Positions 3,283 to 64,000 are shown, counted from the first letter of the stretch. The stretch: DNA of 64,000 bases from Sphyrna mokarran (GCA_024679065.1 JAGIQG010000027.1:28954001-29018000), one strand, 5' to 3'. The notes: generated by a model not told the origin, from the letters alone. Numbers and translations: made by a program.

Positions 3283-3965
3283 AGTCAATTTGGATGCTAG
3301 AGGGAGTTTTTTCATACAGAGGGTGGTGGGGGCATGGAATGCGCTGCCAAGTGGAGGCAGGGACTCTGGAGTTATTTAAGAGATACTTAGATGGGCACAT
3401 GAACAGAATGGGAGTGGAGGGATATAGAAAACGGATTTAAAATAGGAATCATGAGCCTTGGGAGTTCCCTGGGAAGTTGTAAATTGTCAATGATATTGAT
3501 GTATTTGTTTTATCCTACAGGTACTTCGGTCCGGTTTGTTGTCTTACAAGGGACATACATACGATGGGTCGTGAGAGGGCTGCTCTTGGATTTTGAGAGT
3601 ATTATAGTGCTTCACATCATTACTGTACGCTTGACCTCAACCACTTGATGGGCAACACGACAGCTCAGTGACTATCGCGCTGCTGTGCAGATACATGGAT
3701 TTGGGCTTGTGTCTGTGGGAGTTTGCGCATTCTCCCATGCTTGCGTGGGTTTTCTCCGGGTGCTCCGGTTTCCTCCTACATCCCAAAGATGTACTCTTAG
3801 GCTGACTGGCAGAACAAATTCTCCCTAAATTGTTTCAAATTTAGTTCTATGCATAAATCTATAAACATAGACAGGGATCATGGATAGAAGTGGGGACATT
3901 GAGGTGGCGGCGCAGGCTCGTCGGGCTGAAGGGCCTGTTTCCAGTGCTGTTTTGTTCTTTGTTCA
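3283..3965 (+). mobile_element. 5'-truncated CR1 LINE with long V-SINE-containing 3' UTR
   Basis: ORF2 end (NLDARGSFFIQRVVGAWNALP), ~530-nt UTR matching copies at 56840 and 62403, (GTTCTTT)n end. Confidence 0.88.
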
Positions 3966-19060: not shown

Positions 19061-19931
19061 ACCAACATTTACATCAGTGTTATCCAAATTCACCACATGG
19101 TGAGTGTATTTGCCAAACACATGGCAAATTGGTGCTGTTCCTTTTTAGAGCTACATCATACTGAGTTTTGTTAAAAGTTTCAGCAGGGGATTCCAGTACT
19201 CACTAGACTACTACTTGTTACCCATCCATAACTGAGCAAGGAAGAATTCAACTTCAAGAAAGAAACAAACAAAAGACTGTCGTTTGTTACCTTCTCTGTT
19301 CCTGTTCTCTCTAGGTGTTTCTGATGAGATATTTGATTGTGCTCTGTGAAGTGCTGTGAAAGTAGCATCCACCACTTTCAGAAGGACAACAGCCCAAATG
19401 CTCGTTTTGGAAATGGCATGAGTTAGAACATATGCGAAGCAAGGTTCAGAACGTTGAAGCAACTGTGTACAGACTTGCCGATTATTTTCTTACCCAGGTT
19501 TCTGAATATAATAGGAACACTTTTTTCATGAAGAAATTTTGTTTTTGAAATAAACTATGAGGAACAATTTATTTTATTAAGAGATTGCCAGCATCCTAGT
19601 TAGCAGCCAGTTAGAGTGTAAATAGCAGGCTTGCCTTACAGAAAAGTTGAATGTCAAAATCTTTTTGAAGCTGTTCTCTTGCTTCTAACAATAAGTGTAT
19701 TATTCTTGATTACTTGATTTTGATTATTTTCAATATACTGCACATTTGTATTATACTGAATATGGTGATTGTCTCAAGTTTGACAAGCATTGAAATTGTA
19801 TTGGATAATACTGATTGACAGTGTTCTTTCTTATCCTTGGCAATGTGTGTACAGGGCAAATGATGGTTACCATTTCCCATTGCCAAAGGAATCAATTATG
19901 TTTTAAGTGCAATTACTGTCATTATGTCCTA

Positions 19932-20010
19932 ACACAGTAAGAAGTCTGACAACACCAGGTTTAAGTCCAACCGATTTATTTGATAGTAAACTCAGAAGCT
20001 TTAGAGGTGT
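19932..20010 (-). mobile_element. Penelope-like terminal fragment (same family as the 51.6-53.5 kb palindrome)
   Basis: cacagtaagaagtctgacaacaccaggtttaagtccaaccgatttatttgatagtaaac. Confidence 0.8.
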
Positions 20011-23857: not shown

Positions 23858-23920
23858 ATGATGTAGAGATGCTGGTGCTGGACTGGACTTAAACCTGGTG
23901 TTGTCAGACTTCTTACTGTG
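23858..23920. mobile_element. Collapsed Penelope-like palindrome scar with TSD
   Basis: Left terminus atgatgtagagatgctggtgctggactgg fused to right terminus acttaaacctggtgttgtcagacttcttactgtg; flanks ggtccctact / ggtccctgct. Confidence 0.75.
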
Positions 23921-38359: not shown

Positions 38360-41300
38360 CACTAGGACACAAAAAGGTACAGCACAGCAACAGGCCCTTT
38401 GGCCCTCCAAGCCTGTACCGATCATGCTGCCCTAACTGAAAAAAAAACATGTTTTGCCTGTCTGGTCCTTATTCCTCTAATACCTCCCAATTCCTGGCCA
38501 TCTAGCTGCCTCTTAAATGTTGCTAATGTGCCTGCTTCTACCATCACCTCTGATGGCGTGTTCCAGGCATCCATCAATCTCTTTGAAAGCCATCTCCCAC
38601 ACATCTCTCAAACTTTCTCCCTCACCTTGAGCATGTGTTCACTTGTAAGTGAAATTTCGACCTGGGAAAAAGCCTCTGACTATTCACTCTGTCTACGTCT
38701 CTCAATTTTGTAGATCTCTATCAGACCTCCCCTCAGCCTCTATCTTTCCAGTGAAATCAACCTCTCCTCAGCCAATGCACAAAAAAAAACAGGTAACATC
38801 CTGGTGAACTTTCTCTACACTCTGTCCAATGCTTCCACTTCTTTCTGGTAACGTAGTGACCAGAACTGCATACAATACTCCAAATGCAGCCCAAGATCTC
38901 ATACAGCTGCAACATGATTTCCCAGCTCTTGTATTCCTGTCCCAGCTAATAAAGGCTTCCTAATCACTTTGGTCACTCGTATTGCCATTTTTAGTCAACT
39001 GTGGACCTGCATGCCTGGATTCCTCTATGTAAATGTCAGAACCCTTGGGAACGTTTACAGTATAATTCACACCTAAATTTATCTTCCAAAATGCATCACC
39101 TCATATTTGTCCAGATTAAACTCCATCTGTCATTTCTGTGCCCAAGTCTCCAATCTATCTATATCTTATTGTATCCTCTGACAATCCCCTGCATCCTCAG
39201 AAAATCCAGTAAGAAGTCTGACAACACCAGGTTTAAATCCAACCGATTTATTTGATAGTAAACTCACAAGTTTTTCACCCTCAGGTGAAGAAAATCCCCA
39301 GCACTATCAGCAACTCCACCAATCTTCGTGTCATCCGCAAATTTACAAATCAGATTCCCAACAATTTTGCGCCAGATCATTTATATAAACTACAGAGGTC
39401 TGAGCACTAACCCTGTGTAACACCACTAGTTATAGATCTCCATTTTGCAAAACCACCCTTCCACTACTACTGTCTTCTATAACCAAACTAGCCATCTAGT
39501 CAGCCCACCCCAAATCCCATTTTAGTTTTTGTACCAGTCTGTCATATAGTACCTTGTCAAACACCTTACTGAAGTCCATATAAACTACATCCACAGCCCA
39601 TCCCTCAATTATCTTTGTTCACCGCTTCAAAAAATTCAATCAAGTTGGTGAGACATGACCTTCACTGTACAAAACCACACTGCCTGTAACTAACCAGTCA
39701 GTTTTCTTCCAAACGTGCATATATCCTGTTCTTTAATATCTCCTCCAAAAGCTTCCCCATCACTGATGTCAGGCTCACTGGCCTATAATTTCCTGCTTCC
39801 TTTCTTAAACAAGGGAACAAAATTGGCAATTCTCTCCAATCTTCTGGAACCTCGCCCATGGTCAAAGAGGATGTGAAGATACCTGTTAAGGCCCCAGCTA
39901 TTTCTTCCCTTGTCTCCTGCAGTAATCTGGAATAGATCCCATATGACCCTGGGGACTTGTCTACATTAATGCAATTTAGGATACCCAACAATTCCTCCTT
40001 CAATATACTGATACTCTTTAGAGCGTTCTTCACATACCTATCCCTGACTTCAACATCCGTCATGTCCTTCTCCTTGGTGAACTTGGTAAATACCAATACA
40101 AAGTATTCATTAAAGACTTTACGCACTTCTTGTGGCTCCACGCATAATTTCATTCCATTGTCCTTGAGTGGGCCTACTGTTCTCTTGCCACCCTCTTATT
40201 CTAATATATGCGTAAAAAAACCTCAGGTTTCTCTTGACCCTAAAGACATTGGCCAAAGATATTTCATGGCCTCTTTTAACCCTCCTAATTCCATCTTTAA
40301 GTTCTTTTCTGCTTTCACTATACTCAAGGGCTTCATTAGTTTTTAGATACCTAGGCCTAATTTTTCCTTTTGACTAAGCTTACAATTTCCCTTGTCATCC
40401 AGGGTTCCCAAATTCTGCCATTTCTATCCTTCATTTTTGCAGGGATGTGCCTGCTCTGCACTTCAATCAACTGGCCTTTAAAAGCATCTCACATGCTAGA
40501 TGTAAATTTGTCTTTAAATAGCCATTCCCAATCCACACTCCCCAATTCCTGTCTAATTTGGATATAACTGGCCCTCACCTGAGGGTCACTCGACCGTAAC
40601 CATGACTACCCAAAATCTTATAGAATTATGGTTGTTAAGCCCAAAATGCTTTCCCACTGAAATATCACCTAGCCCAGCTCATTCTGCAAAACCAAATCTA
40701 GTATACTCTCCCTTCCTGATTGGATTGTCAACATACTGCATCAAAAAGCCCTCCTGGATACATGTAACAAATTGCTCTCTGTCTAAGCCCTGGACATAAG
40801 TGGGTCCCGTGTGCAGGAAGTTAAAGTCACTCACTAGAAATACCCTGCTTTTTTCACACCATGTCAGTATCTGACTACACAACTGCTCTTCTGTCTCCTG
40901 CGGGTTGTTGGGAGTCCATATACACTCCCAACATTGTGATTTCACCCTTTCCATTCCACCCATAATGCCTCACAAACCCCTTGTGATCCAATGTGTCCAC
41001 CCTCAACACAGCTGAGATATACTCCCTAATCAGCAGTGCAACTCCCCCACCGTTTTTTTGTTTTAGACAGAACAGAAGGGAAAACAACAATATCCTGCAA
41101 TGTTAAGCTGCCAGTTCTGTCCCCCTTTTAACCATGTCTCTGTAATTACAATATCATAATTCCATGCAACATCCAGGCTCTCAGTTCATCTGTTTTACCT
41201 GTTATACTTCTCACATTGAAGCAAGCATACTCCAGACCTACAGTCTATGCCTGCTCTTACTCTGCGCTATGTTTATCTCAGTCTCACTACCACCAACCCC

Positions 41301-50510: not shown

Positions 50511-51155
50511 GGTGTAAATTCAACATTTTTTTGAATGCTTTGGCTGGAACATAACTGGTATATTAACTAACAGAAAGTACAAGTTCATAAAGGTGAGGGG
50601 AAATTGGAACCTTAGTGAATGACAGGACAGTGATAAATTTCTTCAATTAATGGAATTTCTGGATTCAGAAATGGCAGGGGGAGGATAGATTAGAATCAAA
50701 ACAGAAGAGAAGGTAACGTTAAAAAAAATTGCATTGGAGAAAGAAAAAGGTGGCTAAAGAAAAATAATAAATTTCTAACATACTCATCGCAGGAAAGAGG
50801 CTCACCTTTAATATATATTGCTAAAAGAGTACTCATACTGTTCATAATGAGTTCTAACTTTGTGTTTAGTAGGCACATGATTATTTAATTGGCAATTAAT
50901 GTGGAATTCCAGCAAACTCTTAAAACAAAATGGGGATCTTAAGGAGCATCAAATAGGAATTTCTGAAGACTCATGTCTCTTCTTACAGGCTAGGGTGATT
51001 TGTGCACTACTGATGCCATAATTCATGAGTGTTATTTTACCAGGTAGATTTGGCTCATACTTGAATGCCATTGTGTCAACTTACTATATTTCAAATGCTT
51101 TCGTAACCAAAGATACAATGTATTCTAATTAGAATTCAGAAAATAACATTCTTAC

Positions 51156-51281
51156 ATGTGTTTTATAAGGACTGAAGAACGAATTGCAGTTAGCCAATGA
51201 ATCACTGAATACATCTGTTGATCTGCTGTTGACATCAATACCATTGTAGTAACGATTCACACTTTTCAAAATAGTTTTTGG
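51156..51281 (-). CDS. MEIOC: MEIOC coding exon 2 (PKTILKSVNRYYNGIDVNSRSTDVFSDSLANCNSFFSPYKTH)
   Basis: ttttctctttttcag| acceptor, |GTAAGA donor, 126 nt, phase 0-0; resembles recalled mammalian PKVAF...NR...TDVF. Confidence 0.85.
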
Positions 51282-51394
51282 CTGAAAAAGAGAAAACCCT
51301 TATGAACTTTGGTCATTGGGTATTTTAAAATTATTAACTTAAAATGACTAATAAATTTTAATCAGAGAAAGGAATATTTTTTATGAAATATAAA

Positions 51395-51595
51395 CAAAGA
51401 ACAAAAGTATAGCACAGGAACAGGCCTTTCGGCCCTGCAAACCTGAATTGATCATGACATCCTAACTAAAAAAATTTACTCGGTCCATACTCCTCTACCC
51501 ATCCGGATGCCTGTCAAATGTTGCTAATATGTCTGCTTCCACCATATCCTTTGGCAGTGCGTATCAGGCACCCACCACTCTGTCTGAAAAGCTCC
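51395..51595 (-). mobile_element. CR1 tail fragment hosting the Penelope insertion (continues 53451-53490)
   Basis: gcacaggaacaggcctttcggccc...ctctgtctgaaaagctcc | ccccagacatctctc. Confidence 0.7.
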
Positions 51596-53450
51596 ATGAT
51601 GTAGCGATGCTGGTGTTGGACTGGGGTAAAACACAGTAAAAAGTCTGACAATACCAGTTTTAAATCCAACTGATTAATTTGATAGCTTTTGGCTCTATGG
51701 CCTTCATCAGGCGAATGAGGTGTTCTGGTCTCCAAAAGCACACATATCAGCACAGACAGTTTACAGATTACTGATTAGAATGCGAATCTTTACACCGAAC
51801 CTGCTATTCAAGTCTTAAAGTGGCTAACAATGTGAATGGAAGGAGCACTGAGCACAGGTTAAAGGAGATGTGTATTGTCTCCAGACAGCACACTAAGTGA
51901 GGTTTTTTGCTAACCCAGGCAAGTCATGGGGGTTACAGATAGTGTGACATGAAGCCAAGATCCCTGTTAAGACCGTCCTCATGCGTGCAGAACTTGGCTA
52001 TCAGTCTCTGCGCTGTCGTGAAGGCCCCCTTGAAGAACGTTTACCCGAAGGTCGGAGGCCGAATGCCCATGACCGCTGAAGTGTTCGCCAATAGGAAGGG
52101 AACAGTTTTGCCTGGTGATAGTGGATGAATGAACATCACTCGACAGTCGTAGTGTCTGCATGGTCTTCCCAACGTACCATGCTTCAGGACATTCTTTCTT
52201 GCAACATATTAGGTAGACAACATTGGCCGAGTTGCACGAGTATGTACCGTGTACCTGGTGAATGGTACTCTCACGTTTGATGATGTCATCCACGTCGATG
52301 ATCCGACATGTCTCCCAGAGGTTGCTGTGGCAGGGTTGTGGGGTATTGTGGTCACTGTTCTCCTGAAGGCTGGGTACTTTGCTGCGAACAATGATCTGTT
52401 TGAGGTTGCACGGTTGTCTGAAGGCGAGAAGTGGAGATGGCCCTAGCGAGATGTTCATCATCATCATCAATGATATGTCGAAGACTCCGGAGAAGATGTC
52501 GTCCAGTGCTTTGTTGTCCAGTACTTCTCCGGAGCGGAAGAGCTACAGCATCTTCTCCGGAGTCTTCAACATATCATTGATGATGATGAACATCTCACTA
52601 GGACCATCCCTACACCCCCACTTCTCGCCTTCAGACAACTGCGCAACCTCAAAAAGACCATTGTTCGCAGCAAAGTACCCAACCTACAGGAGAAGGGTGA
52701 CCACAATACCACACAACCCTGCCACAGCAAACTCTGGGAGACATGTCAGATCATCGACGTGGACGACATCATCAAACGTGAGAGTACCATTCACTAGGTA
52801 CACGGTACATACTCTTGCAACTCGGCCAATGTTGTCTACCTAACATGTTGCAAGAAAGGATGTCCCGAAGCATAGCACATTGGGAAGACCATGCAGACAC
52901 TACGACAGTGGATGAATGAACATCGCTCGACAATCACAAGGCAAAACTGTTCCCTTCCTGTTGGCGAATACTTCAGTGGTCACGGGCATTCGGCCTCCGA
53001 CCGTCGGGTAAACATTCTTCAAGGGGGCCTTCACGACACACGACAGTGCAGAGCCGCTGAGCAGAGACTGATAGCCAAGTTCCGCACGCATGAGGATGGT
53101 CTTAACAGGGATCTTGGCTTCATGTCACACTATCTGTAACCCCCATGACTTGCCTGGGTTAGCAAAAAATCTCATTTAGTGTACTGCCTGGAGACAATAC
53201 ACACCTCTTTAACTTGTGCTCAATGCTCCTTTCACTCACATTGTTAGCCACTTTAAGACTTGAATAGCAGGTTAACTGTAAAGATTTGCATTCTAATCAG
53301 CAATCTGTAAACTATCTGTGCTGATATTGGAGCTATTGGAGACCAGAACACCTCATTCATCTGACGAAGACCATAGAGCCGAAAGCTTGCGTGTTTACTA
53401 TCAAATAAATTGGTTGGATTTAAAACTGGTGTTGTCAGATGTCTTACTGT
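51596..53450. mobile_element. Palindromic Penelope-like element: two head-to-head GIY-YIG/3'-end arms (51596-52498 minus; 52549-53450 plus)
   Basis: GIY-YIG motifs NVVYLICC..C...WYVGKT..LR; arms are reverse complements; TSD (t)gaaaagctcc at 51585-51595 and 53450-53460. Confidence 0.92.
53355..53393 (+). ncRNA. Minimal hammerhead ribozyme motif in the PLE terminus (degenerate mirror copy at 51680-51715, minus)
   Basis: CTGACGA-agaccatagagcc-GAAA-gcttgcgtg; mirror copy CTGATGA-AGGC catag a GCC-AAAA. Confidence 0.55.
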
Positions 53451-53524
53451 GAAAAGCTCCCCCCAGACATCTCTCTTAAGCTTTGCCCAAATATGCAATC
53501 CCTATGACTGTCTACCTTCAGATA

Positions 53525-53740
53525 CATCATGAATCACAGACTCACATCCCATCACTGAGAATCTTGGATACAGCCCAGACCCCATCACTGTGAGAATCAC
53601 AGATACAAACCCACACTATATCACTATGAGAATTACAGGTATAGACTCACACCCCATCACTGTGTGAATCACAGACAGAGACCCACACCGCATTACTTTG
53701 AGAACCACAGATACGGATCCACACCCATCAGCTATAAGTG
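53525..53740 (+). repeat. Degenerate 36-bp minisatellite, about 6 units
   Basis: Unit like GAGAATCACAGATACAGACCCACACCCCATCACTGT. Confidence 0.85.
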
Positions 53741-54099
53741 ATTTACAGCATGTTTTCACAAGATATTGACCATCTCCTACTACTTTGATTTTCCTGGTGA
53801 GATCAGTGAACTTTTCAGCATTGAGAAGCCAAATGAGCATCAGAGGACCGGCCAGCACCAGCTTCTTCCATTCAATCCGGATCAAATTCTTCGTAAGCTT
53901 CTATCCCTGGGGGTCAACTCTGAATTACCAGCATTTTTTAAAAACCAATAACACTTCCAATTTGGGACTTTATTGATTCTATATGCACAGAAACACTGAA
54001 ATGATCCACATTGTTTAAAGTCACAAACTACTACATTTTACTGTAATTAGTTTAGCAGTGCAACAGCAACAAATTTTACTCCATTCTAGAAGTGAGATC

Positions 54100-54270
54100 A
54101 AAATAAAGGATGCAAATAATGCTGGGAATCCAATACTAAAGACAAACAGCAGAATCTGAGAGGGGAAACAGAGTAAATGTTTTGGATCAATGACTTTTCA
54201 CAATTGCCGCTTGATGAATGTCTCCAGCATTTTTTGTTTTCATGAGATTTCCAGCTACCACAATATTTTT
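54100..54270. mobile_element. Decayed inverted pair of second-family PLE tails
   Basis: tgcaaataatgctgggaatc... versus ...tctccagcattttttgttttcatgagatttccagc. Confidence 0.45.
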
Positions 54271-54886
54271 AATTTGTTTTAATATTAGAATGAAATTCAC
54301 AAAAGTAATTAGCACTATAAATCCAAACAATCTGAACATCCTTCCAGCATGCCCTCTTTGACTTTGCCATTATTCTTGATTATACCTTTTTGAAGCATCA
54401 TGAATAATTTAACAACAAACATTGCACATGAAACATTTGTAAGTATTACTCTTGCTCAGTGGCAAAGGATAGAAAACACTCTCTCAAGAACTGGACTCTG
54501 ATCTGGGAACAACAAGACTTTTTCCACAACAGCTGGTTAAAGATAACCTAAAGTCAAGTACAACTTTCTTACAGTAATAGCGAAGCCTGAATAACTGTCA
54601 AAGCACTCTTTTAACATGTGCTGCAACAATGGGAAAACCCAAACTTGGATAACATTCAGGCTTGAGCTAATAATTTGCACCACATAAGCCCAAAGGCCAT
54701 TTCCAACAAGAAAGGAACTATCTACAACCAACCTTTGACATTCGATGGCACTATCCATCACTGAATCCTTCAGCATGTCATATAGTGTATCAAAAAATAA
54801 CCCATTTTATACATGAGACATCTGGAAACCATTGATCATGCGTGAAAGAGACTGAAAAGATTAATACCAGTTTTAAAAATCACACT

Positions 54887-55210
54887 GTTAGCACTGCTCC
54901 TTCACAGCTCCAAAAACCGAGGTTTGATTCCCGGCTTGGGTGACTGTTTGTATCGTATTTGCACATTCTCCTTGTGTCTGTGTGGGTTTCCTCTGGGTTC
55001 TCCAGTTTCCTCCCACAGTCCAAAGACGTGCGAGTCAGGTTGATTGGCCGTGCTAAAAGAAATTGTCCTTAGTATCCTGAAATGCGTAGGTTAGAGGGAT
55101 TAGTGGGTAAAATATGTAGGGATGTGGGGGTAGGGCCCGGGTGAGATTGTGGTCAGTGCAAGCTCCATGGTCCAAATGGCCTCTTTCGGTACTGTGGGGT
55201 TTCTATGATG
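54887..55210 (+). mobile_element. HE1-type V-SINE
   Basis: gttagcactgct...ggtttgattcccggcttgggt, V-domain, ttctatga tail. Confidence 0.88.
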
Positions 55211-55346
55211 ACTGAATGGCAGAGCTGATACAGAGGCCAAATGGCCTAATTCTGCTCCTATCTGGTAGGGTCTAAACCATCTCCAGAACTGACAAACCAA
55301 TGGAAGGCAGCTTTTTGGGGGGGGGGGGGGGGTGAGGGGCTTCCAC

Positions 55347-55404
55347 CACGTGACTGGTGAGCGGGTTCAAGAGGTCAGAAAGGCGGCCATCCCCGCGCAT
55401 GCTC
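55347..55404. promoter_or_regulatory. Intron-1 module: E-box CACGTGAC, DR2 RARE, NRF1-like site
   Basis: CACGTG 55347-55352; GGTTCA-ag-AGGTCA 55364-55377; GCGCATGCTC 55395-55404. Confidence 0.5.
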
Positions 55405-56059
55405 GGGCTGGCTACCGGAGTCAGAGAGCCGAGCCGGCCGCTCCAAATAAACCCTCGCCCCTCTGCTGATTAAAATATTAAAAACATTATCACGCACACT
55501 TCGTTTGAAATGACACTTCCAAACCGAAACCAACAAGAGTTTGGCTAAACCGGGGTAATTTCTTTTTACCCCTCCCCTCACACAAACATTTCCACATCCC
55601 CTTCACAAATGCGCCGCTAATGCGTCGGAGAGAAAACTCGCACCCAAATCCAAAAGAGGTGAACAAAGTTAAAACTGCTCCGTATTAATTGATTCGCTCG
55701 ACGCACGAACTCTCCACGAGGTGTTAAACCATCATGCTGCATCCTGTACTGACAACCAACATTTTTTAACACCTTCAACTTGTTCTAGGAAATGCACAAT
55801 TGGGATGGAGGAATAATTTTTTAAAAAAAGTTTATAGAAAATTAATGATGGTAAGAGTGAAGGCATTAGTTGCTCTTGTCTCGATGTCCAATTCGATGTC
55901 GTTGTAATCTAAATAACTGGGTGTTTTACATCGAAAAAGGGCTTGTCTTCCTCTGGCTGAAATATACGAGGCCGGAACTTGAACATTTAAATAAACCTAA
56001 AATTCCGATCAACAAACAGCAAACTGCCCCCACTTGCCACACAAGAGTGGCCGCCTCAC

Positions 56060-56065
56060 CTCCAT
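56060..56065 (-). CDS. MEIOC: MEIOC coding exon 1 (2 codons, Met-Glu)
   Basis: cacacATGGAG|GTGAGG donor inside the CpG island; phase 0 joins exon 2 to give MEPKT...; unspliced read-through gives MEVRR, like the recalled human N-terminus. Confidence 0.7.
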
Positions 56066-56839: not shown

Positions 56840-58200
56840 GAACAAAGAACAAAACAGCACGGGAAACAGGCCCTTCGGCCCAACGAGCAAGCGCCGCCTC
56901 CCCGATATTCCCATCTCTACCCGCGATCCCTGTCCATGTTTATAGATCTATGGATTAAAAACCAAATTTGAGACAATTTAGGGAGAATTTGTTTTGCCAA
57001 TTAGCCTAAGAGCACATCTTTGGGATGTGGGAGGAAACCGGAGCTCCAGGAGAAAACCCACGCAAGCACGGGGAGAATGCGCAAACTCCCACAGACACAG
57101 GCCCAAATCCATGTATCTGCACAGCACAGAGATAGTCACTGAGTTGTCGTGTTGCCCATCAAATGGCCCAGGTCAAGCATACACTAACAACGTGAAGCAC
57201 TAGGATACTCTCAAAAAAAATCCAAGAGCAGCCCTCCCACGACCCATCGCGTGTATGCCCCTCGTTAGACAACAAGGTGGACCAAAGCACCTGTAGGATA
57301 AAAACAAGTACATCAATATAATCATCTATTTACACACTTCCCAGGGACTCCCAAGGCTCATGATCCCTATTTTACATCAGTTTTCTATACCCCTCCATTC
57401 CCATTCTGTTCATGTGCCCATCTAAGTATTTCTTAAATAACTCCAGAGTACCTGCCTCCACCACGTTACTTGGCAGCGCATTCCATACCCCCACCACCCT
57501 CTGTGTGAAAAAACTCCCTCTAGCATCCAAATTATACCTTACCCCCTTCACCCTAAGCCCGTGACCCCTCGTGCTATTTGAGTCCATCCTAGGAAAAAGC
57601 TTAACCCTGTTTACTCTATCAATCCCCTTCAAAATCTTGTACACCTCTATCAAATCTCCTCTAAGTCTACGTCTTTCTAAGGAAAACAGTCCCAATTTGC
57701 CTGATCTCTCCTTATAATTCGGACCTTCCATACCAGGCAGCATCCTGGTAAACCTCCTCTGCACTCTCTCCAGAGTCTCCACGTCCTTCCGGTAGTAAGG
57801 CGACCAGAAGTGGATGCAGTATTCCAAATGAGGTCTAACCAGTGTTTTATACAACTGCAACATTAAAGGCCAGCTCTTGTACTCTATACCCCTTCCTATA
57901 AAGGCTAACATGCTATATGCTTTCTTCACAACCTTCTCCACTTGCTCTGCCACCTTCAGAGACTTGTTCACCTGCACCCCCAGGTCCTTCTGCGTTTCTA
58001 TATTCTTAATAGGTCTACCCTTTATCATATACCTCCCCCCTACATTCTTTCTCCCGAAATGCATCACCTCACATTTATCAGGATTGAATTCCATCTGCCA
58101 TCTATCTGGCCAGGCTACCAGTCTATCTATGTCCTGCTGTATCGTCTGACAATGCTCCTCACTATCCGCAAGTCTGACAATGCTCCTCACTATCTGCAAG
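56840..58200 (-). mobile_element. Young 5'-truncated CR1 with V-SINE-containing 3' UTR
   Basis: Open ORF 57372..58199 (ORF2 C-terminus) plus ~530-nt UTR; 28-bp tandem duplication at the 5' junction. Confidence 0.95.
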
Positions 58201-58612
58201 TTACTGTATCCTCCATATCATAAATCTCAGGCAACTGTTCTCAACATGAGTAACCGTTGTATATATCTTTACAACCAATAAATGTGCCAATCCAAGTCAA
58301 AACAAAAGTGCAAAGCCATTGAGATTTACTTTATTTACTAGTGTCATAAGTAGGCTTATATTATCAATTCAATGAAAATTTGAGGCTTAGTTTGGAACTT
58401 AATGTAATACCATTTTGTTTGGGGCTTTGCTTACCCTAGATTTTCAGGCTACAATCCTTTATGCCTGGAAAAGCAGCCAACCCTACCTGGAAATGCAGAC
58501 AAACTTCATATCCTTATGCTCCAGCAACAATCATTCCAATAACTGTCATGATTTTTAGCTCTTGGGAAAAATCAGCGCTTCCACAATTTCTCATAACTGA
58601 GCAATATGGGTC

Positions 58613-62402: not shown

Positions 62403-64000
62403 AAAGAACAAAGAACAAAACAGCATGGGAAACATGCCCTTTGGCCCGGCGAGCCCGTGCCGCCACCCCAATGTTCCCACCTCTACCCATGATCCCTGTC
62501 TATGTTTATAGATCTATGGATTAAAAACCAAATTTTGACACAATTTAGGGAGAATTTGTTTTGCCAATTAGCCTAAGAGCACATCTTTGGGATGTGGGAG
62601 GAAACCGGAGCACCCGGAGAAAACCCATGCAAGCACAGGGAGAATGTGCAAACTCCCACAGACACAGGCCCAAATCCATGTATCTGCACAGCACAGCGAT
62701 AGTCACTGAGCTGTTGTGTTGCCCATCAAATGGTCCAGGTCAAGTGTACACTAACGACATGAAGCACGAGGATACTCTCGAAAAAGATCCAAGAGCAGCC
62801 CTCTCATGACCCATCGCGTGTATGCCCCTCGTTAGACAACAAGGTGGACCAAAGCACCTGTAGGATAAAAACAAGTACATCAATATCATCTATTTACACA
62901 CTTTCCAGGGACTCCTAAGGCTCGTGATCCCTATTTTAAATCAGTTTTCTATACCCCTCCATTCCCATTCTGTTCATGTGCCCATCTAAGTGTTTCTTAA
63001 ATAGCCCCAGAGTACCTGCCTCCACCACTTTACTTGGCAGCGCATTCCATACCCCCACCACCCTCTGTGTGAAAAAACTCCCTCTAGCATCCAAATTATA
63101 CCTTACCCCCCTCACCCTAAGCCCGTGACCCCTCGTGCTATTCGAGTCCATCCTAGGAAAAAGCTTATCCCTGTTTACTCTATCTATAGCCCTCATAATC
63201 TTGTACACTATTAGATCTCCTCTAAGTCTACGTCTTTCTAAGGAAAACAGTCCCAATTTGCCTAACCTCTCCTCGTAACTCAGACCTTCCATACCAGGCA
63301 GCATCCTGGTAAACCTCCTCTGCACTCTCTCCAGAGTCTCCACGTCCTTCCGGTAATAAGGCGACCAGAGGTGGTCTAACCAACATTTTATACAACTGCA
63401 ACATTAAAGGCCAGCTCTTGTACTCTATACCCCTTCCTATAAAGGCTAGCATACTATATGCTTTCTTCACAACCTTCTCCACTTGCTCTGCCACCTTCAG
63501 AGACTTGTTCACCTGCACCCCCAGGTCCCTCTGCGTTTCTATACTCTTAATAGGTCTACCCTTTATCATATACCTCCCCCTTACATTCTTTCTCCCGAAA
63601 TGCATCACCTCACATTTATCAGGATTGAATTCCATCTGCCATCTATCTGCCCAAGCTACCAGCCTATCTATGTCCTGCTGCATCGCCTGACAATGCTCCT
63701 CACTATCCGCAAGTCCAGCCATCTTTGTATCGTCTGCAAACTTGCTGATCACTCCACTTACTCCCTCTTCCAAGTCATTTATATATATTACAAATTGAAG
63801 AGGTCCCAGTACCAAGCCCTGCGGCATACCACTAGTGACTGACCTCCAGCTAGAAAAACACCCTTCCACTATTACTCTCAGTCTCCTATTACTAAGCCAG
63901 TTACTTATCCATCTAGCTACCTGTCCTTGTATCCCATGAGCCTTGACCTTCTCAACTAACCTCCCATGAGGGACTTAAACGCCTTCAAACGCCTTACTAA
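62403..64000 (-). mobile_element. Young CR1 with V-SINE-containing 3' UTR (runs off the window)
   Basis: ORFs 63228..63869 (SKFADDTK) and 62936..63343; small deletion near LVRP causes the frameshift; highly similar to the 56840 copy. Confidence 0.95.

Follow-up and report, generated by a model that had tools for sequence, protein, structure and literature searches.

MEIOC and its repeats

The window, i.e., the whole 64,000-nt stretch of Sphyrna mokarran DNA that was analysed, carries the gene MEIOC on its minus strand, as recognised by a Pfam match (PF15189) and by the 92–93% identity of its large exon to the MEIOC of Heterodontus and Scyliorhinus. Exons 2 to 8 were placed by tblastn with full-length orthologues. 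The coding part of exon 1 appears to lie at 56065-56060, adjoining a GC-rich island, judged from the orthologues, of which three of the five inspected encode proteins starting with ME-PK.

56060..56065, minus strand: putative coding part of MEIOC exon 1 (ATG GAG, then a GT donor)
51156..51281, minus strand: MEIOC exon 2
~48770-48620, 34750-34641 and 33270-31337, minus strand: MEIOC exons 3, 4 and 5
~22009-21869, 12733-12554 and 8872-8633, minus strand: MEIOC exons 6, 7 and 8

With exon 1 in this position, intron 1 extends over 51282-56059 (4.78 kb), and an insert derived from a Penelope/Poseidon-type element (PLE) at 51596-53451 falls within it, 314 nt upstream of the exon-2 acceptor. The original prediction, made from the DNA alone, had placed the insert in MEIOC intron 1, and the exon mapping bears this out, exon 1 being the one deduced piece; a neighbouring gene as the host is ruled out by the same mapping.

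Further repeats surround the locus. A minisatellite with a period of 36 nt lies just right of the insert at 53538-53730, and two closely related LINE 3′ fragments (56840-58217 and 62406-63974) are situated upstream of the MEIOC promoter island; an inverted relative of these fragments, with 87% identity, is found at 3287-3964.

Anatomy of the palindromic insert

The insert comprises 1,856 bp and consists of a head-to-head pair of 5′-truncated Penelope/Poseidon-type 3′ ends, bounded by a TSD and embedded in a LINE fragment:

51403..51584, resuming past the right TSD to ~53500, minus strand: host CR1-type LINE 3′ fragment, colinear with copies in the window
51585..51595, plus strand: left TSD copy TGAAAAGCTCC (9-nt core 51587-51595)
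51596..51631, minus strand: PLE tail of 36 nt, at the family's distal terminus, in the left arm only
51632..52502, minus strand: left arm, a 5′-truncated PLE 3′ end co-oriented with MEIOC; stop codon at ~51935-51933
51676..51704, minus strand: dead minimal-hammerhead-type motif in the left arm (motif level only)
52120..52145, minus strand: micro-inversion of 26 nt in the left arm, seen as a direct repeat of 52904-52935
52498..52508, no strand: junction, with a GTCGT overlap followed by a short templated duplication
52509..53451, plus strand: right arm, a longer, tail-less 5′-truncated PLE 3′ end with two in-frame stops
53355..53398, plus strand: minimal-hammerhead-type motif in the right arm, antisense to MEIOC (motif level only)
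53450..53460, plus strand: right TSD copy TGAAAAGCTCC

Each arm is ~870–900 bp long and contains the linker, the GIY-YIG region, the stop codon and the pLTR of a PLE. Aligned to each other (left, 52498→51632, minus strand; right, 52549→53451, plus strand), the arms are identical at 788 of 862 positions (91.4%), with 46 gap columns. Self-comparison and arm alignment thus agree with the palindrome of two ~900-bp head-to-head arms that had been proposed. The right arm terminates at the proximal terminus TTACTGTG, and the 36-nt extension is limited to the left arm, as had also been claimed. We compared the insert with contigs, of DNA or of unknown kind, from X1, which is possibly the window's own source and so not independent, and from the relatives X2, X3 and X4. 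In 258 X1 and 149 X2 contigs, loose ends with unrelated flanks coincide with position 51595, which identifies the tail end as a family-wide terminus.

A minimal hammerhead ribozyme in the pLTR is described as a PLE feature in the available text of PMC4209133. The candidate motif of the left arm retains CUGAUGA and stem II, GAAA has become AAAA and 12 nt are lost downstream; that of the right arm reads CUGACGA, with one mismatch in stem II, GAAAGCUU and a visible palindromic AAGCUU. An Rfam search at E≤10 returned no hammerhead match and the MFE fold contained no ribozyme structure; the five matches obtained at this threshold were all under the gathering score, and the one to MIR408 reflects the hairpin alone. 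Both the AATAAA hexamer and the hammerhead core are lost in the left arm, which is co-oriented with MEIOC; the right arm keeps them, as do two other copies. This loss from the MEIOC-sense arm could reflect tolerance filtering or chance.

Target site and junction

The sequence TGAAAAGCTCC occurs exactly twice in the 64-kb window, at the two ends of the insert; by chance, an 11-nt match is expected at 3e-7 per position and a 9-nt match at 5e-6. A single TSD around the whole unit was part of the original prediction and is found, with a length of 9–11 nt instead of 10–11, the initial two bases (TG) being equally attributable to the element end. Because two other copies in the window carry 9-nt TSDs, 9 nt is the simpler length. 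When the insert and one TSD are removed, the reconstructed empty site aligns without a gap at the junction to LINE copies at 38498, 57452 and 63016. Copies at 38373-38609, 57452-57544 and 63016-63108 run colinear with the host LINE fragment; RT-related ORFs contain the second and third of them. The target is therefore located in a putatively CR1-type fragment, as the earlier analysis had stated.

At the junction, the arms share five nucleotides, GTCGT (52498-52502), that are assignable to either of them, and 52497-52507 copies 52512-52522 at 10 of 11 positions. The join accordingly consists of a 5-nt microhomology and a brief templated slip. The following stretch, 52509-52548, is coding sequence by which the right arm extends further 5′ (FVVQYF...), and it aligns to PLE relatives from 52510. 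What had been taken for a separate spacer of ~50 bp is thus mostly coding sequence of the right arm. GTCGT and ACGAC, separated by ~45 nt, also form a short inverted repeat at the junction, the loop of which has right-arm orientation.

None of the 32 contig pieces listed spans the junction, a circumstance that would suit an assembly artefact created by a chimeric fold-back read. We consider this explanation negligible, as the arms differ at 74 positions and carry polarised indels, unlike a duplicated read, and as both TSD and tail obey the rules of the family. A strand-switch joint in X1 (52502/52544) was rejected as support for the junction, since any continuous family copy would give the same signal.

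Element family, subfamily and age

The arms have 70–87% identity to the C-termini of proteins with RVT_1 and/or GIY-YIG domains (P0011, P0016 and P0030), and Pfam searches with the reading frames of the arms alone matched none of three frames. The PLE features found are a C-terminal GIY-YIG domain downstream of RT (via the relatives), an inverted truncated copy, a one-sided tail of 30–40 bp and a TSD. The Cys/His zinc-knuckle motif of the linker was matched by 13 of 24 PLE proteins, all 13 of which read CK; both arms read WE at this place, with the loss of one Cys. By domain and termini, the insert itself being without RT, we assign it to a dead shark element of the EN+ Penelope/Poseidon type.

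An inverted 5′-truncated copy, a one-sided 30–40-bp tail and a TSD constitute the standard architecture of EN+ PLEs in the accessible parts of PMC3846280 and PMC8557442, so that the premise that PLEs produce inverted copies and extensions of 30–40 nt is documented. As far as the units of Adineta Pen2/Pen2a, Penelope and Naiad are described there, they share with the shark insert the head-to-head arms, the tail at one end, the 9–11-bp TSD, the short repeat at the junction, the microhomology-type deletions and the 5′ truncation. In contrast to them, the shark insert has no full ORF or tandem body, its arms of ~0.87 kb each reach ~600 nt into the ORF and enclose a loop of ~45 nt, and its host is a meiotic gene. 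The insert, the outline of which is well preserved, is hence ordinary in kind and represents the usual footprint of Penelope-type elements. Among the papers covered by a literature search, as judged mainly from their listings, there was no description of a shark PLE palindrome, of this locus or of PLE dual priming; the available portion of 10.64898/2026.07.22.740005 contains nothing on inverted inserts, and none of the papers listed on shark MEIOC deals with intron 1 by its title or the start of its abstract.

The family is represented by 68,835 contigs in X1 and by 21,044, 22,609 and 8,065 contigs in X2, X3 and X4, respectively, where summed contig depths are not equivalent to copy numbers. 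Among the 40 of 151 difference rows listed, three fall within the arms, and at all three both arms carry the X1-majority allele. At position 51911, the alternative letter accounts for 4.5% of the depth in X1 and for at least 99.8% in X2–X4. The listed alleles therefore suggest that both arms come from one subfamily, dominant in the X1 lineage and rare in X2–X4; an origin of the arms from different subfamilies, which had been named as a point against a common insertion, is not what these rows indicate.

Orthologous flank contigs differ from the window at 31 of 488 letters in X2 (50884-51371) and at 64 of 716 in X4 (50702-51417), and both end before the insert; among the pieces listed, none from X3 covers this flank. 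Since this flank divergence is of the same order as that between the arms, the insertion is old and probably postdates the splits from X2 and X4. Elsewhere in the family, five of the 15 joints listed (from a total of 109) are strand switches, with depths of 19–70, in X1 and X3. Located at other positions, these joints suggest that fold-back-like copies recur and that MEIOC is one source among many.

Motif scans gave no match in viral contigs and two in metagenomes, which with 23 aligned nt are attributable to chance. In one public protein, P0035, a PLE linker/GIY-YIG piece is joined to the C-terminus of a cytochrome P450; this fusion is probably a gene-model artefact or an exonised PLE.

Divergence and decay of the arms

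The arms show 7.9% mismatch and, in addition, six structural lesions; with the micro-inversion left out, 65 mismatches remain over 828 positions (K2P 0.084). All six lesions lie in the left arm: insertions of 3 and 1 nt, deletions of 8, 20 and 12 nt, and the 26-nt micro-inversion, which neither gained nor lost bases and spans RQRMNEH, a conserved endonuclease helix. No indel is private to the right arm, polarity having been set by the proteins of relatives, other copies in the window and contigs. The concentration of indel and inversion events in the tailed arm (6/6) has P=0.03, calculated post hoc. Amino-acid changes number nine in the left and 15 in the right arm among 173 codons (P=0.31). 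Substitution decay is thus symmetric between the arms, and the 6:0 split of lesions is something that plain clock-like decay does not predict.

CpG loss amounts to ~38% per arm, and stops and frameshifts are present. Compared with the consensus of 15 relatives, 25 of 173 codons deviate in common in both arms. Common CpG-type changes, among them the replacement of Arg by Trp at the conserved RQRMN position, were observed three times with 1.4 expected (P=0.17). As parallel decay suffices to explain this number, we discarded these changes as proof of a single donor RNA. The arms have decayed independently since insertion, and on the sequence at hand an origin of both from one RNA is not proven.

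Probable origin in one insertion event

Further PLE copies in the window share the termini of the palindrome:

23858..23920, no strand: second insert of 63 bp with PLE ends, in MEIOC intron 5
39208-39288: solo tail-less PLE 3′ stub with a perfect 9-nt TSD AGAAAATCC, beginning at a partly deleted hammerhead motif
19931-20003: solo tail-less PLE 3′ stub ending at the same terminal base as the stub at 39.2k

Across the window, TTACTG(TG/TGTT) is where four tail-less ends break off, and a pair of inverted ends has the ATGATG tail end in common as its start. Counted from the start-codon position in the hammerhead core, these two termini are at +88 and +124 nt. A TSD was looked for around the 19931-20003 stub and none was found. 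The 63-bp insert combines an inverted tail piece with a direct tail-less 3′ end, has few shared bases at the join and arms that do not overlap, and is flanked by a 9-nt TSD with one mismatch (GTCCCTACT/GTCCCTGCT). It thus has the same two ends as the main palindrome and is a minimal twin-priming-like product.

That the palindrome was made in one event, as originally predicted, is very probable, given the single TSD, the clean empty site, the X1-majority alleles shared at all three listed rows, truncation points only ~50 nt apart and a microhomology junction. Alternatively, one subfamily could have inserted twice at this spot, or an inverted duplication could have followed, the TSD then matching by chance; this view could draw on the ~8% sequence difference and the structural differences between the arms, as well as on the tendency of PLEs to insert in their own pLTRs (PMC11167929, in its accessible text). 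Nevertheless, such a history is very improbable: within ±10 nt, a unique perfect TSD of 9–11 nt would arise by chance with P of ~1e-4 to 6e-6, there is no TSD inside the unit, the junction lies in coding sequence and not in a pLTR, the two truncations fall close together, and a second insert shows the same two ends.

Dual priming and fold-back as proposed mechanisms

We favour dual priming over fold-back as the likelier way in which this insert was made. In this proposal, the GIY-YIG endonuclease would have nicked both strands of the CR1 remnant, 9–11 nt apart, and the 3′ end of each nick would have primed reverse transcription on sense element RNA. On the top strand, synthesis would have started at the distal site and yielded the tail; on the bottom strand, it would have started at the proximal site, which lies 36 nt further upstream, and yielded the tail-less arm. 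Both cDNAs may have halted after ~0.9 kb, and their free ends may have been joined via the 5-nt microhomology and templated slip, as in microhomology-mediated repair. Gap filling would then have left the TSD, after which the arms decayed independently. Anatomy, TSD, empty site, junction and decay are observed here, along with the fold as a computed prediction, whereas nicking and extension of two strands and the start sites are taken from in vitro work on Anolis Poseidon (PAc); dual priming itself, the repair join, editing and neutrality are our inferences.

In that work, as far as the accessible text of PMC11167929 reports, both target strands were cleaved and extended, a dimer was predicted, and two RT start sites bound the tail, with initiation at +111–118. 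The shark element resembles PAc in the C-terminal GIY-YIG domain, the hammerhead-type motif in the pLTR, the AT-rich target and the two termini bounding the tail, which lie at +88/+124 here. It differs in that the PAc data come from in vitro reactions without joined palindromic products, and in that the shark element is dead. The 63-bp insert at 23858-23920, with its same two ends, fits dual priming as well.

The alternative of one event through self-priming is unlikely. An antisense RNA or the first cDNA would fold on GTCGT/ACGAC and be copied into a hairpin, with the tail of the template arm trimmed at integration. Head-to-head junction palindromes have been ascribed to self-priming on an antisense template (PMC3846280) and the tail to resolution by the endonuclease (PMC8557442), according to the parts of these papers available. 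The inverted repeat at the junction, ~45 nt apart and with a loop in template-arm orientation, suits this course, and so do the six of six structural changes in the would-be copy arm: if the left arm were the copy strand, its slips and micro-inversion could be explained. Yet an exact trimming of 36 nt would be required, the PAc experiments explain both termini as RT starts on sense RNA on either strand (PMC11167929, accessible text), and the solo tail-less copies at 19.9k and 39.2k, which involve no fold-back, reach the same terminal base. A simpler version, self-fold-back of a single cDNA without trimming, was rejected: it cannot supply the tail, since the loop belongs to the tail-less arm.

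Dual priming has a parallel in LINE-1 twin priming, in which both target strands prime cDNA and the products are joined by microhomology in opposite orientation, yielding non-overlapping segments of one RNA, i.e., an inversion. The insert in MEIOC intron 1 likewise has the marks of two strand-primed cDNAs in opposite orientation with a microhomology join. Unlike L1 inversions, however, its arms overlap by ~860 nt, so that two RNAs, a tandem RNA or re-copying would be needed; only the 63-bp insert at 23858-23920 consists of non-overlapping inverted segments as in L1.

Taken together, we regard a neutral, dual-primed insert of Penelope/Poseidon type, made in one event, as the best explanation of the whole, with a probability of roughly 0.65. 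What Poseidon does in vitro, priming on both strands and starting RT at two sites, would thereby be connected to a product found in a genome, complete with TSD, tail and repair junction. Shark genomes with their very many copies make a count-based test of dual priming versus fold-back possible. A tentative and rather doubtful reading of the 6:0 lesion asymmetry is that the tailed arm was made second, by strand-displacing synthesis; if it is true, such palindromes record in the genome how the second, still unsolved half of PLE integration proceeds.

Predicted hairpin and possible function

On the MEIOC strand, the insert is predicted to fold at -1,514.6 kcal/mol with 818 pairs between the arms, compared with -526.7 kcal/mol for a stretch of intron 1 that matches it in length. 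The predicted uninterrupted helices of at least 21 bp number 16 and total 592 bp, the longest having 72 bp. From this fold, a duplex is expected whenever intron 1 is transcribed: the MEIOC pre-mRNA should form an interrupted duplex of ~820 bp that is then spliced out. Thus, the ~850-bp hairpin originally predicted for the pre-mRNA is retained in its extent by the 818 pairs, but it is not continuous, as the left-arm lesions interrupt it.

Intronic duplexes of vertebrates are mainly ADAR substrates, and the vertebrate germline relies on piRNAs. With 91% over 862 aligned bases, the arms exceed the ≥65% identity used as a criterion for inverted copies in the same pre-mRNA (PMC5625713). By analogy, incidental A-to-I editing of the hairpin is plausible. 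In its accessible text, the same study describes hyper-editing of a palindromic Harbinger in Xenopus and, massively, of Penelope in lizard, and it detected hyper-editing in the brain of the elephant shark; the Harbinger and lizard Penelope repeats resemble the present insert as long, tight vertebrate transcript duplexes with a short loop, the shark duplex being a predicted one.

The original prediction went further and saw in MEIOC a possible stage-specific source of dsRNA against the family. In such a case of co-option, the hairpin of a meiotic-entry gene would be diced to siRNAs against the family or a lineage-specific subfamily of it, or tune the processing of intron 1, and be kept by selection. 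The predicted duplex of 818 pairs with its 16 helices of at least 21 bp would be suitable, zebrafish meioc marks meiotic entry (PMC13637641, available text), and neither the hammerhead motif nor the AATAAA hexamer survives in the MEIOC-sense arm, as if it had been "disarmed". A precedent exists in transgenic D. melanogaster, where, in the accessible parts of PMC3681739, siRNAs were mapped to inverted portions of rearranged Penelope copies. Like the shark insert, those copies are rearranged and contain a long inverted repeat from which dsRNA could arise; they are, however, young and near-perfect, and their insect host possesses a dedicated siRNA pathway, whereas the shark insert is 8% diverged, intronic and in a vertebrate. 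Moreover, the Drosophila Penelope siRNAs silence inefficiently according to the same source.

Two tests for selection on the palindrome were null. Pairing bias on the MEIOC strand (G-U 29 vs A-C 19, P=0.19) was assessed on 48 transitions and is a weak test; its non-significant G-U excess points in the direction expected of selection. Homogenisation of the arms, measured by the longest identical run of 72 nt (P=0.13, again a weak test), was not detected. These results, the 7.9% mismatch and six structural lesions, and a huge family with recurrent strand switches, through which many loci could make such dsRNA, all speak against co-option, as does the handling of vertebrate duplexes by ADAR and of the germline by piRNAs; we consider co-option improbable. 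That the insert has no selected host function is highly probable and neutrality the most likely state; MEIOC as a special dsRNA source against the family is unlikely. The idea of siRNAs or editing is also less novel in view of its precedents in Drosophila (PMC3681739) and lizard (PMC5625713), as far as these are described in the available texts. Should small RNAs or an effect on MEIOC splicing be found, the intron of a meiotic gene would be serving as a timed, transposon-derived hairpin, an instance rare among vertebrates.

Two other inverted pairs occur in MEIOC. The close pair 35159-35363/36140-36341 in intron 3 (207 nt, 83% identity, ~780 nt apart) is a weaker dsRNA candidate than the palindrome. 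The pair 49393-49530/54920-55057 (138 nt, 74%) flanks both exon 2 and the palindrome and could favour looping or back-splicing of exon 2.
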